From: a virus
Lineage: Duplodnaviria > Caudoviricetes
Strand: one strand, 5' to 3'
Virus record (IMG/VR): IMGVR_UViG_3300014205_000002
Coordinates: 64,001-128,000 of that record
DNA: 64,000 nt
Positions 20,355 to 30,020 of the stretch are shown here, one piece after another (the first letter of the stretch is position 1; the number at the start of each line of letters is the position of its first letter). Below the pieces are notes generated by a model that was not told the origin of the DNA, searched no databases, and was given only the letters and a program-made list of their open reading frames with translations. A program made the position numbers and the translations under genes.

Positions 20355-21385
20355 CACATATGATTGATTATGAGCACATGGACTTCGACTGTGACGTCCC
20401 TGACGAACTCATGTGCGACCTAAAACAGATTCTCGACGCCCGGAACCGGATCAAGGTATGCGTCGCCGGCAAACTCTACGAGTACCGTCCGGTCGTTGTT
20501 TTTAGTGAAAACTCCGGCACGGTGATTGTCGTCATCAAGTATGCCGACAACGAGGCGCATCTTTCTGATGTGGCGGAGTTCGAGTACGGCGAGTACAAAG
20601 ACCTCTCCGAGGACAAGCGGATCGATCTGGTTCGTTTTAAGTTTCTGGAGATGAAGGATACCTTTGATTGCGTCTCATTCAATATCCCCCGAGAGTTGGG
20701 ACTATTGGAGACGTTTAAGGGGTTGGCCGAGCCTGCGGCCGTCAGCACGGCGACGTGCTCACCTTGGCGCGTCGAGGGCGTCGTTCCAGACGAAGGCATG
20801 GTCAACAAGTTGCTCGTCATCATCCAGAATGAGATTCTTGAGCATTACTCTGACATGCTCGCGTTCGATGTGGACGACGCTGACGACCTCGGTGGTAGCA
20901 TCGTTGATCGGGTGTTTGCGGAGATCGCGCCCGACAAGATCGCCAAGATGCCCAGCGACGATGATGACGCTTCCGAATCCGTCGTTATTACCGACGAAGT
21001 CAAGGAGGCGTTTCGAGACGCCCTCTGGGGCTATTTTAAGATCGCCTCGCCATTGGCGATACGAACCAAGGAAGGCCGCGAGGCCGCAATCGACATGATC
21101 GAGGCTGCTGTTGAGAGCCCCAATCTAGAGGGTAGCTACCTCAAGGATAGCCTTGTTTCTATGACGAATTGGCATAACTTCATGACCGTCACGGAGCTTG
21201 AGCGCAACATTGGTTATGCGATCCTCAATCAGGCTGGCCACGTCCCTATAACCAATGGTTACGGTTACTTGATCTGCACCAATGAGCATCGTCAACTCAC
21301 CGAGATGGAGATCGACTCCATGTCAGATAAGGCCCTGGAGATGATCGTCACCTTCCTTGAGTCCGGCGAGACGGACGACGACTAG
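20351..21385 (+). CDS. Acidic hypothetical protein, AT-richer than its flanks
   Basis: 344 aa; GTGA overlap with the upstream gene. Confidence 0.7.
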   Translation: MTHMIDYEHMDFDCDVPDELMCDLKQILDARNRIKVCVAGKLYEYRPVVVFSENSGTVIVVIKYADNEAHLSDVAEFEYGEYKDLSEDKRIDLVRFKFLEMKDTFDCVSFNIPRELGLLETFKGLAEPAAVSTATCSPWRVEGVVPDEGMVNKLLVIIQNEILEHYSDMLAFDVDDADDLGGSIVDRVFAEIAPDKIAKMPSDDDDASESVVITDEVKEAFRDALWGYFKIASPLAIRTKEGREAAIDMIEAAVESPNLEGSYLKDSLVSMTNWHNFMTVTELERNIGYAILNQAGHVPITNGYGYLICTNEHRQLTEMEIDSMSDKALEMIVTFLESGETDDD

Positions 21386-21387
21386 GC

Positions 21388-21413
21388 TTCCTGATAATCG
21401 CGGTTATCAGGAA
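21388..21413. repeat. Perfect 10-6-10 inverted repeat, dif-like core
   Basis: TTCCTGATAA TCGCGG TTATCAGGAA. Confidence 0.85.
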
Positions 21414-21489
21414 AAGCCACGGGAACGTGACGCGCGCGAATGCCCTGGGCGTTCGGACCTGGCGCGCGACGGGCCGCCGTAGGGGCGCA

Positions 21490-21515
21490 CGCGCGTTATC
21501 TGGCGCGCGTTATCT
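21490..21515 (+). repeat. 12-bp direct repeat, two copies (TTATC half-sites)
   Basis: CGCGCGTTATCT at 21490 and 21504. Confidence 0.8.
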
Positions 21516-21601
21516 AGGCTTGGCACAGGCACTCGTGGGCGCTGCTCCGTAAGCACGCGCCCAGAGCCAGTTTCCGGAAATAGCCCGCATCCGGAATAGG
21601 T

Positions 21602-21621
21602 CAGATAAGACTCATTATCTG
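21602..21621. repeat. 7-6-7 inverted repeat, dif-like core
   Basis: CAGATAA GACTCA TTATCTG. Confidence 0.8.
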
Positions 21622-21689
21622 TACTGGCGCGGGTTTCGGTGCTTTTGTCACGCGTCGCGGCCGAGTTGGTCGCGGCAGAGAGGAACCCT

Positions 21690-25560: not shown

Positions 25561-25763
25561 CCGTGAAGTGGATCGCCAAAAACGCGGGGCCTGTCGTCCG
25601 ATGCGGCGACACTCATGATGTGACGCTGATTCAGGCTAAATGCTTCTGCCACAACATGGCCGGCTGTGTCGAGCACGGCATGCTGTTTATACAGGAGAGT
25701 GGCGAGAAGTCCTGGTACGAGGGTGGTGTCGGTCCCTCGCTCAAGCCCGATGATTCTCAATAA
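25557..25763 (+). CDS. Hypothetical protein; stop lies in site 1
   Basis: ATGA overlap; TAA inside TCAATAAGG. Confidence 0.55.
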   Translation: MTVKWIAKNAGPVVRCGDTHDVTLIQAKCFCHNMAGCVEHGMLFIQESGEKSWYEGGVGPSLKPDDSQ

Positions 25764-25790
25764 GGTTTTGCTTACATTGAAAGGAGCACC

Positions 25791-25937
25791 ATGACGGTCG
25801 AGCAGCTTATCAAGCTCCTGCAAGAGGCCAAACAGACGGCCGAGGTCCGCATCGGTGGTAAGAGCCGCAAGGCGATCGGAAAGAGGATTGGAGGCGTCTG
25901 GCATGGGTCCTGCTACATCGAGATCCTGCCCGAGTAG
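25791..25937 (+). CDS. Cassette ORF, 48 aa (MTVEQLIKLLQE; not in the ORF track)
   Basis: GAAAGGAG RBS from site 1; TAG abuts site 2. Confidence 0.65.
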   Translation: MTVEQLIKLLQEAKQTAEVRIGGKSRKAIGKRIGGVWHGSCYIEILPE

Positions 25938-25973
25938 CGATAGGCGTTTACTTCCATTGAAAGGAGGTCCACG

Positions 25974-26339
25974 GTGACCAATTACCTAGTCCGCAATACC
26001 GAGACCGGCGCGTTCTATCCTGTGGTTAACGTCCAACTCGAAATGGACGCCTACACCGCGGTCGTCGAAGCGTTCGACATCCCGCAGTCGGTCGCAGACG
26101 CCCCTCTCGAAATTATGAACCAGGCGTGGGTTTGCCCCGGCGAGTACGCCACCAAGAGCATCCGTAGCGCCAAAGAGGAACTCTGGCAGGCGATGGGGCC
26201 TGACGCCACCGAGGCCGAGCGTGACGCCGTATGGGAGGCTGATGTCGTCCACGATCCGGACGCGGACGCCTACTACGTGGTCGACCTCGTCAAGGCGATC
26301 GAGCGAGTGACGGACAACAAATCGGAGAATCGGAAGTAG
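25974..26339 (+). CDS. Cassette ORF, acidic hypothetical
   Basis: GAAAGGAGG RBS; TAG directly before site 3. Confidence 0.7.
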   Translation: MTNYLVRNTETGAFYPVVNVQLEMDAYTAVVEAFDIPQSVADAPLEIMNQAWVCPGEYATKSIRSAKEELWQAMGPDATEAERDAVWEADVVHDPDADAYYVVDLVKAIERVTDNKSENRK

Positions 26340-26374
26340 TCAATACTCGTTTACTTACATTGAAAGGAGCCACG

Positions 26375-26581
26375 ATGGCACGCCCACCAGGACCTCGCAA
26401 GCCCCGCCGTGACTTCGACGCCGAGCCGCAATACTGCGGCAGCGGCATCACGCCTGAACAGGCGAAGGCGATTCTGTCGCTCTGCAAGGCGCTGGAATAC
26501 TGCGCGGCCCTGGGTCACGACGACGTGGCGCTCAACGCCCTGGAAGCCGACGCCGCCAAGCACGGGCCACCTACAAAGTAG
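26375..26581 (+). CDS. Cassette ORF, 68 aa
   Basis: GAAAGGAG RBS; TAG ends the left arm of site 4. Confidence 0.65.
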   Translation: MARPPGPRKPRRDFDAEPQYCGSGITPEQAKAILSLCKALEYCAALGHDDVALNALEADAAKHGPPTK

Positions 26582-26612
26582 TCCTTCTTATCGAGAGCAT
26601 ATGAGGCCACGA

Positions 26613-26810
26613 ATGGAACAACTACACCAGGCTAAATTCCGCGTTGTCTGCACATTGCCGTATGACAACGAAAGGCATGTAGCGTGCCTGACTCCTATTA
26701 ATGGACCCGGCGTAGATCTTCAACTCTACGTTGACACGCCAACATGCGTGCGGTTAAAGCAGGCGTACGACAGCGGTGAGATTGTAACGTTAACGCTAAG
26801 TTCCGGATAA
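26613..26810 (+). CDS. Cassette ORF, 65 aa, AT-rich
   Basis: GAGG RBS; flanked by two sites with spacer TCCTTC. Confidence 0.6.
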   Translation: MEQLHQAKFRVVCTLPYDNERHVACLTPINGPGVDLQLYVDTPTCVRLKQAYDSGEIVTLTLSSG

Positions 26811-26838
26811 TCCTTCGAATATTGAAAATGAGGTCCTT

Positions 26839-27012
26839 ATGGACGCCTACCACATAGACGGAGAACCATTGCTGCTTGCCACGGTGCAACACGGTGATGG
26901 GCGCACAGAGGAAGTGTGTCTAATGTCCGATGGCACACAGGCCACTAACCCCGTTCGCAGGCTCGGAGGCGGCAACCGGGCACAGCGCAGGGCCGCCAAG
27001 AAGTCAAAGTAA
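26839..27012 (+). CDS. Cassette ORF, 57 aa (MDAYHIDG; not in the ORF track)
   Basis: GAGG RBS; ends TCA AAG TAA, the left arm of site 6. Confidence 0.6.
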   Translation: MDAYHIDGEPLLLATVQHGDGRTEEVCLMSDGTQATNPVRRLGGGNRAQRRAAKKSK

Positions 27013-27037
27013 TCACTATTTCATTGAAAGGAGCGTC

Positions 27038-27244
27038 ATGTACGACGTACAAGTTTGCATCAACGGCTGGGTCACGAACCTGCCGACCAACGTCCCCTGG
27101 ACCGTAGGACAGGAGATCAGCATCCGCGTCGGCGCAGACGAATGGGTCGGCGAAGTCATGGCCTGCAAGTCCACCCTGGACGACCCGAACGAAGGGCCTG
27201 TGACCTCGCCTGGCTACGACCACGCGGCGGGTTACCATGACTGA
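27038..27244 (+). CDS. Cassette ORF, 68 aa
   Basis: GAAAGGAG RBS, start MYDVQV. Confidence 0.6.
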   Translation: MYDVQVCINGWVTNLPTNVPWTVGQEISIRVGADEWVGEVMACKSTLDDPNEGPVTSPGYDHAAGYHD

Positions 27245-27605
27245 GCAGATGGCTGACAGCCCAAGAGGGGCAGCTCACGTCGCAGCTCTCAAAGCAATCA
27301 GCCGGTTCGCCGCTGCTGGCCTGGCAGCCGTCCACGGCGAGCATGTGCCGATCGCCATCACCCAAGGCGCGCTCGACTCCATCTTGCAAGCCGCGATCGA
27401 CGTTGCCGGCGACAGCGCCGTAGACGACGCGCGGGCATCCCTGCGCGACCACTACAACGGCGAGCCAGGTCGATGGCCGGTTGGGGCACCCTTGGAGTGG
27501 CGACGGCCTGAGCCAGAGCCGAAAGAGGAGTGCCAGCACCGGGACACCTACTCGTCCTCGCCGAGCGGCTTCACTGTCTGTCGAGACTGCAATCAGGAGC
27601 TTTAG
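27237..27605 (+). CDS. Cassette ORF with C-terminal zinc ribbon
   Basis: CQH..CRDC; stop 2 bp before site 7. Confidence 0.6.
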   Translation: MTEQMADSPRGAAHVAALKAISRFAAAGLAAVHGEHVPIAITQGALDSILQAAIDVAGDSAVDDARASLRDHYNGEPGRWPVGAPLEWRRPEPEPKEECQHRDTYSSSPSGFTVCRDCNQEL

Positions 27606-27645
27606 GCTCAATGTAACCAATATTACATAACGAAAGGAGGGCCCT

Positions 27646-28143
27646 GTGACCTGGTTGAAGTTCGGTACCGTGAAGGGCGGCAAGACACACCGCCACATTG
27701 GTGGCGGCAATGCGCTCTGTGACCCCACTATTCAGTTTGAGGTGACGGGCAACCTCGGCGAGGTCTCGTGCAAGCATTGCCTGCGCAAGATGGCTGACGA
27801 GTCCTTGGCGGTGCCGGCCGTCCGCACGTTCTTCACTTATCAACAGGGCCTCGACTACGCAGTCCATACGGTGACGTTCCCGGCGGAATGGGTGCGGCCT
27901 GCCCGCGGCACCTGGTTCAAGAGCCTTGAAGGGCGTATGGTCGCCTGGCACAACTTCTACGACACGCCGGAGGAGGCGCACGCGGCAGCGGACCTGGCGA
28001 AGTTGCGCAGCCACCTGGCAGCCTTTCACAGCCGTACGAGGGACGACGCCTACGGCAGGGAGATGGTCCAGGAGATGACGGAGCTGGTCGAGAAGATCAT
28101 CGCCATCGCCTACCCGAAGCCAGCCGCCGCACCCGCAATATAA
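27646..28143 (+). CDS. Cassette ORF with N-terminal zinc finger
   Basis: H..ALC..VSCKHC; ends GCA ATA TAA, the left arm of site 8. Confidence 0.7.
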   Translation: MTWLKFGTVKGGKTHRHIGGGNALCDPTIQFEVTGNLGEVSCKHCLRKMADESLAVPAVRTFFTYQQGLDYAVHTVTFPAEWVRPARGTWFKSLEGRMVAWHNFYDTPEEAHAAADLAKLRSHLAAFHSRTRDDAYGREMVQEMTELVEKIIAIAYPKPAAAPAI

Positions 28144-28173
28144 CAACCATTTCATTGAAGAAAGGAGGGCTAC

Positions 28174-28353
28174 GTGCCCAAGTTCATCGTGGTGACCACG
28201 GTCATCGAGCGGCGAGAGATTGAGGCGGCAACGCCCGACGAGGCTTTTGAGTTAAACAACAACGCAGAAGGCAACGACTACAGTCTTTCCGTTGAGGTCC
28301 CTGACCGCTATGCCACGGACGGGAGTGGTCGGCAGTTCCGCGAAGCACTGTAA
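28174..28353 (+). CDS. Cassette ORF, 59 aa (VPKFIVVT; not in the ORF track)
   Basis: GAAAGGAGG RBS; TAA directly before site 9. Confidence 0.65.
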   Translation: MPKFIVVTTVIERREIEAATPDEAFELNNNAEGNDYSLSVEVPDRYATDGSGRQFREAL

Positions 28354-28388
28354 TCAAAGTAACACCAACATCATTGAGAGGCCCCAAC

Positions 28389-28712
28389 ATGGACCCTAGC
28401 GCACAGATCCAGGTTGACAAACTGCGACCTAAAATGATCGAAGCATTTTGCGTCAATTTCAATAAAAGTGAAGAAGAAGTAACTACGGCTATGAAAAGCG
28501 TGGGACATAAGTTCTTCATTGTAATATCAACTCGCCAACATGAATCATACGGATTGATGGCAACATTTATGGTTCCAGCCATCCGCAATAACCAACCAGA
28601 CTTTTCGGTCGAGGAGGCGCTAGTTGACGACGACTATATAGATTACTCGATTCGAGTTATTATCCAGTCAATCGAATCCGTCAACAATACGACCATCAGG
28701 CTTTCGCTATAA
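28389..28712 (+). CDS. Cassette ORF, 107 aa, markedly AT-rich
   Basis: GAGAGG RBS; ends TCG CTA TAA, the left arm of degenerate site 10. Confidence 0.65.
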   Translation: MDPSAQIQVDKLRPKMIEAFCVNFNKSEEEVTTAMKSVGHKFFIVISTRQHESYGLMATFMVPAIRNNQPDFSVEEALVDDDYIDYSIRVIIQSIESVNNTTIRLSL

Positions 28713-28796
28713 CTCCAAAACCCTTAAAAATAGCACGTAATATACTGACCAGATACCTAGACAACGACGGCGGCACGACCGCCAGGAGGATACCCA

Positions 28797-29165
28797 TTGA
28801 AGCAAGAACGCAAAGAGGCGCTGAGGAAGCTCGGCAAGGCCGCAGAGCGGTTCCGGCTGCTCGCGGCGGTGCCGATGCAACGCACCATCCGCCCCGGCGG
28901 CATCATCGTCCAGGCCGCCGAGGACGTGAACCTGTTTCTGCTGGCCGAGGGCATCGGCCTGGCGGGCGGCGACGGCCTGTTGCTGCTCACCGAGTTGGCG
29001 GCCACGCGGAAGGCGCTGGCGGATCTACTGGAGCACCACGAGGACGAGCCCGATCGGCCAGCCGTCAAGAACGCCAGCGCGATGCTGGAAGGAATCCACG
29101 AACACGTGGCGCTGATGCGGGACTTCGGCCCTGCCTCCGCTAAACAGAGCGAAGGCGGGCTGTGA
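28797..29165 (+). CDS. Hypothetical protein
   Basis: AGGAGG RBS, TTG start. Confidence 0.6.
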   Translation: MKQERKEALRKLGKAAERFRLLAAVPMQRTIRPGGIIVQAAEDVNLFLLAEGIGLAGGDGLLLLTELAATRKALADLLEHHEDEPDRPAVKNASAMLEGIHEHVALMRDFGPASAKQSEGGL

Positions 29166-29404
29166 TGCGGCGAGAGATTCCCATTACCCAGGGACCCAAC
29201 CGCACCGTGGCGATGACCCAACACGGCGACACGTTGAGTCTCTATGAGCGTGCGGACGGCCGGGAAAACCGGGTGTTTATTGCGCCCGAGGAGTTGGCAC
29301 TGGTTGCGCTCTCCGCGTCGGGACGCTTCCAGGAACGCTACTCCGCGGAGATTGAGCGGTTGCAGGGCCAGGCCGACTCACCGGGCGAAGGCGGCGGCGC
29401 ATGA
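29162..29404 (+). CDS. Hypothetical protein
   Basis: Overlaps both neighbours by 4 bp. Confidence 0.55.
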   Translation: MMRREIPITQGPNRTVAMTQHGDTLSLYERADGRENRVFIAPEELALVALSASGRFQERYSAEIERLQGQADSPGEGGGA

Positions 29405-29607
29405 CGAGCGTTTATCCCATCGGGCCGCTCGGCGAACCCGAAGATAGTCGGGCGTGGTCGAACGGCATTCCGCCGTGCGGTCCCTGTGGACGCGGGGAGC
29501 ACGATGAGTGCAAGGGTGGATTCGAGGACCTGGCCGGATACCGTCAGTGCTGGTGCCCTGTTTGCTACCCCGCCTCTTCGCGCAAAGACGGCGATCAGCA
29601 CGGATAG
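29401..29607 (+). CDS. Small Cys-rich protein
   Basis: CGPC..H..C..CWCPVC; TAG directly before site 11. Confidence 0.55.
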   Translation: MTSVYPIGPLGEPEDSRAWSNGIPPCGPCGRGEHDECKGGFEDLAGYRQCWCPVCYPASSRKDGDQHG

Positions 29608-29645
29608 TCAATGTAACAGCCGATTCATTGCAAAAAGGAGTCCTG

Positions 29646-29993
29646 ATGACTTGCTGCCATTGTTCAAGCGCCAACTTGGAATACGCCACGAAGCGCGCCC
29701 GCGAGGCTGAAGTTGAACTGGCTCGACTCCAGGCAGACGTCGCACGCATCCGCGGCGAGAACCAGAACCTCCACTACGCCATGCTCGTCGTCCGAGATCT
29801 GGTTGGCTTACAGACGCGGGATGCCTACCTTGACCCGGCCTTTGGGCAGATGGTGAAGCTCCCGGCTGACTGGCGAAAGTGGACGACCGAGCAGTATCAG
29901 GAATGGATCGATGGGCAGCAGCCAGAACTGCGCCGGGCCGTCGAGTTCCTGGACAAGATGGAGGGCGTCGTTGGCGTCGTCCCAGCAATATAA
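29646..29993 (+). CDS. Cassette ORF, 115 aa, coiled-coil
   Basis: AAAGGAG RBS; ends GCA ATA TAA, the left arm of site 12. Confidence 0.65.
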   Translation: MTCCHCSSANLEYATKRAREAEVELARLQADVARIRGENQNLHYAMLVVRDLVGLQTRDAYLDPAFGQMVKLPADWRKWTTEQYQEWIDGQQPELRRAVEFLDKMEGVVGVVPAI

Positions 29994-30020
29994 CCCCTGA
30001 CTCATTGAAAGGATGGCATT

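Follow-up and report, generated by a model that had tools for sequence, protein, structure and literature searches.

The locus described here raises the question of how an AT-rich gene of 65 codons (ORF65) came to stand among the small genes of a GC-rich phage, between two palindromic sites with the same 6-bp centre. The window analyzed was a stretch of 64,000 nucleotides, representing bases 64001–128000 of a virus record of 208,264 bp, which carries direct terminal repeats, was assembled from a landfill metagenome, and has a whole-genome GC content of 0.64. Positions given below are those of the window unless the genome is named. Comparison with 50,697 phage records by megablast and tblastn revealed no relative of the phage, and back-translated scans of IMG/VR with ORF65, with a gene for 121 aa lying upstream, and with one for 747 aa located 6 kb downstream gave 0 matches. 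Since no relatives are detectable, all conclusions rest on internal evidence from a single genome.

ORF65 lies within an array of 12 palindromic sites (25757–30008, plus strand) spanning 4.3 kb; the list of the 12 sites was taken from the initial annotation of this DNA. The sites have the 9-6-9 form TCAATGTAA-N6-TTACATTGA, followed by AAGGAG and a start codon, and in about half of them the stop codon of the upstream gene is inside the left arm. The pattern TCAAT-N14-ATTGA, with ≤1 mismatch allowed, was found 8 times in the 208-kb genome, 7 of them within 25757–29985, with about 0.8 expected. Allowing ≤2 mismatches, CATTGAAAGGAG had 12 matches versus 3.1 expected, and the copies in the array that were exact or had 1 mismatch were situated directly 5′ of start codons. 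At three junctions of the array (27237–27244, 29162–29165, and 29401–29404), stop and start codons overlap and no site is present; therefore, some of the inter-site units contain two or three genes.

No paralogy was found among the genes between the sites, and for this reason tandem duplication was ruled out as the origin of the array. Reading the sites as RNA hairpins or terminators was rejected as well: folding was no better than that of shuffled sequences (z from −1.2 to +0.7), the sites matched no family in Rfam, and scanning for promoter-like and terminator-like sequences gave 3 versus 3.1 and 8 versus 9.4 in shuffled DNA, respectively, with none inside the sites. The lack of RNA folding beyond chance and of any Rfam match points to a signal at the DNA level or in the linear sequence. 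When IMG/VR was scanned with the array motif, 48 single hits were obtained, mostly on AT-rich contigs and at about the number expected by chance, and no second array was detected. Judged from the sequence, the sites most likely act chiefly as signals of an early-type gene block, either for protein binding or for the start of translation, and as landing pads secondarily.

ORF65 (26613–26810, plus strand) is an orphan gene encoding 65 aa, with GAGG 6 nt 5′ of its ATG and a TAA stop codon within the right inner arm. It is preceded by a gene for 68 aa (26375–26581, plus strand; GC3, 0.77), whose last codons and TAG stop make up the outer left arm, and is followed by a gene for 57 aa (26839–27012, plus strand; GC3, 0.66). 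The sequence was as claimed in the initial annotation, which had described an AT-rich 65-aa gene between TCCTTC-centred sites: ORF65 had a GC content of 0.495 and a GC3 of 0.52, compared with GC3 values of 0.66–0.85 in the 17 other GC-typical genes scored. The gene is compositionally foreign to the phage.

Word-indexed protein searches gave 0 matches for ORF65, and both adjoining genes matched themselves only. An exhaustive HMMER search returned four hits to ORF65, none of which was counted as a homologue. The strongest was discarded as a repeat artefact, the match being to a 13-residue motif that recurs many times within a junk repeat protein, and the second as a weak resemblance (about 30% identity) to an FG-GAP protein repeat domain. 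Searches of Pfam, PHROGs, and Atlas with ORF65 gave nothing usable, and a wobble pattern for its peptide had 0 matches in metagenome contigs. The single-sequence AlphaFold model was a strand-strand-strand-helix fold of low confidence (pLDDT 61). It had been proposed that homologues of the ORF would reveal whether the same arms accompany it elsewhere; with no credible homologue among 15 billion proteins, this comparison neither supports nor refutes integration.

The left site (26573–26596) reads ACAAAGTAG TCCTTC TTATCGAGA and the right site (26802–26825) reads TCCGGATAA TCCTTC GAATATTGA, and ORF65 is bracketed by TAGTCCTTC (26579) and TAATCCTTC (26808). On the plus strand, the outer left arm (26573–26581) is an array-type half site that scored 4.2 bits (top 0.29% of genome positions) and has CAAAGTA in common with the sites at 27004 and 28354. 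It is followed by the left copy of the centre (26582–26587), a putative inserted segment of 223 bp (26588–26810; GC content, 0.49) with the ends TTATCGAGA ... TCCGGATAA, the right copy of the centre (26811–26816), and the outer right arm (26817–26825), which is again an array-type half site (2.3 bits, top 0.44% of genome positions). Beyond this arm are AAATGAGG and then the ATG of the 57-aa gene, and the spacing between the ATTGA of the arm and the ribosome-binding site is the usual one.

The direct repeat is 9 nt long with one mismatch (TAG or TAA plus TCCTTC), its copies are 229 bp apart, and the identical hexamers stand directly after two consecutive stop codons. In the window, TARTCCTTC was present at two places only, both of them here (0.21 expected; 1 of 100 shuffles reached 2), and the whole genome had one extra copy, on the opposite strand. 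The chance of identical hexamers was estimated at about 3e-4 per adjacent pair of sites and about 3e-3 over the 11 pairs of the array. The two inner arms are complementary at 7 of 9 positions with a perfect GATAA/TTATC core, and the extended inner ends are inverted at 10 of 16 positions (P about 0.002 against random pairs drawn from the region). In the initial annotation, the circle junction obtained by recombining the two sites on paper had been described as this 7/9 repeat. The repeat and its core are present, but 7/9 is ordinary for the array, in which other gene units reach 8/9 and 7/9, since one palindrome is the source of all the sites; what is special in the inner arms is the non-consensus GA/TC bases alone. 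Among the 48 TTATC...GATAA pairs found genome-wide, the ORF65 unit was the only one with 6/6 identical flanking hexamers (0.012 expected).

To score the idea that one site had been split, a weight matrix (in bits) was built from the 10 other sites of the array, and the members were scored by leave-one-out; the motif choices were all post hoc, having been made after the data were seen. The inner right arm of the left site scored −3.5 bits and the inner left arm of the right site −2.3 bits, the lowest right arm and the lowest left arm, respectively, among the 12 sites. With the outer arms being array-type, this is in line with the hybrid look that had been attributed to the flanking sites. As they are, the left site scored 0.7 bits and the right site 0.0 bits, and the predicted circle junction scored −5.8 bits. 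When everything between the hexamers is deleted, the outer arms meet again exactly in the 9-6-9 register; the empty site rebuilt in this way scored 6.4 bits, the best among the four arm combinations. It fits the array consensus less well than had been claimed, however, as it is below every true member (8.5 to 30.9 bits). When virtual deletions bounded by identical hexamers were made, 9 of 151,822 rebuilt a site of at least 6.4 bits, the ORF65 deletion included; in the array region, with any hexamer pair allowed (1,935 pairs), about 0.1 such reconstruction was expected by chance.

The explanation we favour is that ORF65 is a foreign segment inserted at the centre of one pre-existing array site, and its probability is put at roughly 0.45. 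A segment of about 223 bp carrying ORF65 would recently have entered at the 6-bp centre of a palindromic site that stood between the genes for 68 and 57 aa. The event would have left TCCTTC at either side and parted the array-type arms into the present outer arms, and the non-array ends, TTATC... and ...GATAA, would have come with the segment to become the present inner arms. The segment would supply its own ribosome-binding site and stop codon and no promoter, and would thus be read from the surrounding early-type operon. The AT-richness of ORF65, the worst inner arms of the array, the outer arms in register, and the duplicated centre favour a true insertion.

The footprint is plausible as that of an insertion. 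Its sequence geometry, the foreign composition of ORF65, and the pattern of centres across the array are read directly from the DNA; we infer both the insertion itself and a break or crossover staggered across the centre. Three routes fit the footprint, namely conservative crossover of a circle with the target within an identical 6-bp overlap, a staggered cut on both sides of the centre followed by fill-in (target-site duplication around an element with inverted ends), and a single crossover at a microhomology. A dimeric protein that cuts at both sides of the centre would rank first, acting either as a conservative recombinase whose substrate is a circle sharing that centre or by a transposition-like staggered cut with duplication of the centre. 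Second would be a single crossover of a mini-circle at a microhomology of 6–9 bp through the general recombination machinery. In the initial annotation, the locus was called an integration scar with an attL/attR pattern. One array site split by a foreign segment is the part of this claim that stands; an attL/attR crossover does not follow from it, since other mechanisms give the same geometry. Nor can the locus be taken as the strongest sign within the sequence that the array serves recombination, as had been asserted, given that target-site duplication or microhomology would look the same, that the target and incoming arms are dissimilar, and that the recombinase of the phage is about 80 kb away and, by one alignment, has non-canonical residues at two catalytic positions.

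The centres of the array change gradually along its length, in agreement with the spacer gradient noted earlier. Adjacent centres were alike at 3.8 of 6 bases versus 1.4 of 6 for non-adjacent centres (permutation p<1e-5); two adjacent pairs were identical (GTTTAC and TCCTTC) and one pair was alike at 5/6. Sites 1–5 have T-rich centres and sites 7–12 have C/A-rich centres. Likeness of adjacent sites combined with unrelated genes is the pattern expected from successive insertions that duplicate the centre. The simplest account of the array-wide pattern would be local multiplication of sites, each insertion leaving two daughter sites with the same centre that later drifted. AT-rich islands, defined as <50% GC in 200-nt windows, numbered 8 in 208 kb, and 2 of these were within the 4.3-kb array, which is 2% of the genome (0.17 expected). 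This enrichment marks the array as a hot spot for foreign DNA, and the two islands together with the likeness of adjacent centres favour an array growing by such insertions.

A more far-reaching version, for which the odds appear poor, is that the array serves the phage as a platform for capturing genes. Units of one gene each, with inverted ends, would be placed by a phage-encoded enzyme exactly at the 6-bp centre of a palindromic boundary site, the centre being duplicated each time, and the array would grow in a nested manner with ORF65 as its youngest member. Nested growth would explain the likeness of neighbouring centres. The enzyme might be, for instance, the atypical Xer-like recombinase described below, perhaps acting also on both GATAA-N6-TTATC palindromes of the genome.

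The second AT-rich gene in the array (28389–28712) encodes 107 aa, has a GC content of 0.42 and a GC3 of 0.47, and had no homologue in phage records. It was considered as a replicate of the footprint and rejected: its centres are matched at 5/6, but its arms are not hybrid. That this gene does not repeat the pattern counts against the insertion reading of ORF65. The AT-rich DNA of the gene continues about 45 nt beyond the degenerate site at 28704, to about 28760, and thus leaves no clean footprint.

The main competitor of insertion is coincidence, which we consider somewhat unlikely. ORF65 would then be an ordinary fast-evolving gene, or an older acquired one, between two degenerate copies of the motif, and the common TCCTTC would be a local intergenic similarity due to common descent or gene conversion. 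TA(A/G)TC follows the stop codon in 6 of the 12 array intergenic regions; thus, the repeat beyond the consensus is effectively four bases, CTTC, and these four extra bases in common are all that coincidence has to supply. In addition, consensus positions (TC....TAA / TTA....GA) are partly kept in all four arms, and several true members likewise have one poor arm. Likeness of centres is general along the array, so that the 6/6 pair may be the tail of a trend. Close to the start codon, both intergenic regions flanking ORF65 also have ATGAGG.C (alignment score 9 versus 2.9 in shuffled sequences), which could have arisen by duplication of a whole intergenic region and fits this better than a 6-bp duplication. 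A repeat of CTTC only, a rebuilt site scoring below the members, and about 0.1 reconstructions expected by chance all count against insertion. Left unexplained by coincidence are the inner arms, both of which are the worst in the array, the lack of ATTGAAAGGAG in register in the left intergenic region, the enclosure of one of the two AT-rich genes of the array, and TTATC/GATAA ends with identical flanks.

Insertion at one array site, still the preferred reading, might have been carried out by a tyrosine recombinase, with the 9-6-9 sites as dif-like or integron-like core sites. A circle with the junction TCCGGATAA-TCCTTC-TTATCGAGA would have recombined within the 6-bp overlap to give attL and attR. 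We regard this as an unlikely course of events. The 9-6-9 form with a 6-bp centre does recall the geometry of Xer/dif-type core sites (PMC2731167), and the centres are identical, as preferred by strand exchange. The genome also encodes one Xer-like tyrosine recombinase (genome positions 171395–172348, minus strand) with a SAM-like domain (SAM_1) and a catalytic domain. This protein was the sole PF00589 match in the genome, with Pfam scores of 28–29 bits, just above the cut-off, and some 80 kb separate its gene from the array. In an alignment to one solved homologue, the Arg of HxxRH and the Tyr were kept, and Q and A occupied the two His positions of HxxRH, with F replacing the LGH histidine. 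Both this departure from the canonical residues, as seen in the single alignment, and the distance speak against the enzyme. A search of the genome for serine recombinases found none, and no array-like palindrome was present beside the recombinase gene.

The predicted circle junction has the form GATAA-N6-TTATC, and palindromes of this form were found at two places only in the 208 kb. One is the perfect 10-6-10 palindrome TTCCTGATAA-N6-TTATCAGGAA at 21388–21413, and the other, also perfect, is a 7-6-7 palindrome at 21602–21621 in the same non-coding block. Of all positions in the genome, the 21388 palindrome came closest to the predicted circle junction, but its 16/20 is barely above the 14–15/20 reached by control patterns, and the TTCCKGATAA arm was matched at chance level, with 5 extra hits versus about 3 expected. 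A relation between the end of ORF65, TTCCGGATAA, and the arm of the 21388 palindrome was rejected, the match on its own being at chance level. The non-coding block (21386–21689, about 300 bp) also contains two copies each of the direct repeat CGCGCGTTATCT and of the repeat TCCGGAA(A)TAG. From its sequence, it looks like a protein-binding hub, which may be an origin, a regulatory region, or the own site of the phage recombinase. Two further AT-rich islands, at 20501–20700 and 21101–21350, are just 5′ of this block.

The sites themselves also argue against a tyrosine recombinase. The incoming GATAA-N6-TTATC is unlike the target CAAAGTAG-N6-GAATATTGA, and a single enzyme would need to recognize each of the four arms. 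Nearly all centres of the array differ, which under a homology rule would permit neither mutual recombination nor a common cassette pool. In contig searches, moreover, neither the circle nor the empty site was seen.

The predicted empty site reads ...AAGTAG TCCTTC GAATATTGA... and the predicted circle junction reads ...CCGGATAA TCCTTC TTATCGAG.... Exact matching against viral contigs found neither of the two, and a degenerate pattern for both joints gave 0 matches in metagenome and genome contigs, in which rare forms cannot be shown. The search for these joints had been suggested in the initial annotation as a check on the scar; the blank outcome neither supports nor refutes it and, as no relative of the phage has been sequenced, carries no information. 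The stretch with ORF65 was present in a sole run, the likely source (landfill metagenome), as one contig with no joints, and a second run had scraps only, none of them spanning the ORF65 site. A 151-nt contig from a freshwater-sediment metagenome of 2025 was identical to window positions 27183–27333, indicating that the phage or a very close relative is present beyond the landfill sample; coverage in the sediment was too low to resolve the ORF65 junctions.

Shuffling of the PeSL type, in which regulatory boundary motifs double as short homologies for general recombination and a mini-circle or another phage genome leaves chimeric sites, has a precedent in T4-type phages that needs no dedicated recombinase (PMC2839356) and would suit a run of small orphan genes without paralogy, enriched in foreign DNA and with no recombinase adjacent, but is very improbable here, as homologous exchange would be expected to place its crossovers in conserved arm sequence, so that both resulting sites would be of the array type; what is seen instead is inner arms unlike those of the array, with the variable centre as the only common sequence, and the sites have no promoter or terminator above chance.

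Several features of the locus resemble those of known systems. In T4-type phages, PeSLs are conserved intergenic cassettes that flank orphan genes in hyperplastic regions, with mini-circles and chimeric junctions observed and no dedicated recombinase involved (Arbiol et al. 2010, PMC2839356; PMC4122927). The present sites are similar to PeSLs in being short conserved motifs that recur where one small orphan gene ends and the next begins, within an early region, and that are proposed as places of entry and exit, with no adjacent recombinase. They differ in structure, since a PeSL is a sigma-70 early promoter plus a stem-loop terminator, whereas each site here is a palindrome of 24 bp joined to a stop codon and a ribosome-binding site. 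The putative crossover here would be in the variable centre instead of conserved sequence, and circles are predicted here.

The SAS and extended SAS (ESAS) motifs of Cluster K mycobacteriophages include the ribosome-binding site and have a presumed role in expression (Pope et al. 2011, PMC3203893). As in the array, a motif with a ribosome-binding site is directly 5′ of many start codons in one orientation, and in a subset the motif is preceded by an imperfect inverted repeat, whose spacer is variable. The sequences are unrelated; the arms are 9 bp here versus 17 bp, the spacer is fixed at 6 bp here, the sites are clustered in 4.3 kb here versus distributed genome-wide, and ESAS is not known to be tied to gene insertion. 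The resemblance is one of architecture alone.

Core sites of Xer/dif have the form 11-6-11, in which conservation is highest at the inner positions (PMC2731167). Likeness to Xer/dif and IMEX systems is seen in the inverted arms around a 6-bp centre, the inner TAA...TTA, the Xer-like gene in the genome, and the identical centres flanking the insert. In contrast, the arms here have 9 nt instead of 11 nt, twelve sites at gene boundaries are present instead of one site, the arms of target and incoming DNA are dissimilar, and the recombinase is distant and atypical. The array is also similar to an integron in consisting of promoterless, unrelated single genes in one direction, each bounded by an imperfect inverted-repeat site, some of the cassettes being foreign in composition. 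Unlike integrons, no IntI-type integrase adjoins the array, the sole PF00589 match being about 80 kb off. The sites are 24 bp long, with neither the folded attC of 57–141 bp with R′′/L′′...L′/R′ boxes nor a GTTRRRY core in the sites as printed, and the centres resemble those of their neighbours, which is not known of integron cassettes.

Small transposable elements include MITE-like elements and the ultra-small MPME elements of mycobacteriophages. The 223-bp unit is comparable to an element with terminal inverted repeats and a target-site duplication in its 7/9 (10/16) inverted ends, TTATCGAGA / TCCGGATAA, its 6-bp direct repeat, and its position between phage genes. It differs in being present as a single copy in the genome, in consisting almost wholly of one ORF, and in having ends that resemble no named family. 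Genome-wide, no other TTATC...GATAA unit with matching flanks was found, ORF65 was without a family match, and no transposase was identified in the searches made.

Turnover of genes at conserved intergenic motifs in the hyperplastic regions of phages is of an already known kind; the architecture of the sites, along with the grading of their centres, would add a new variety to it. How phages acquire their large stock of small orphan genes is poorly understood, and few concrete landing sites are known beyond the PeSLs of T4-type phages. Should the features around ORF65 prove coincidental, the array would remain a clear example of a start-associated palindromic motif with a candidate regulatory role. 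If the footprint is real, it would define a 24-bp site for the in-frame entry of foreign genes, with ready-made stop and start signals, in a high-GC phage of 208 kb, and the graded similarity of the centres would record the order of past insertions. If the array should prove to be a capture platform, a virus would here carry an integron-like system, in which the site doubles as stop codon and ribosome-binding site.
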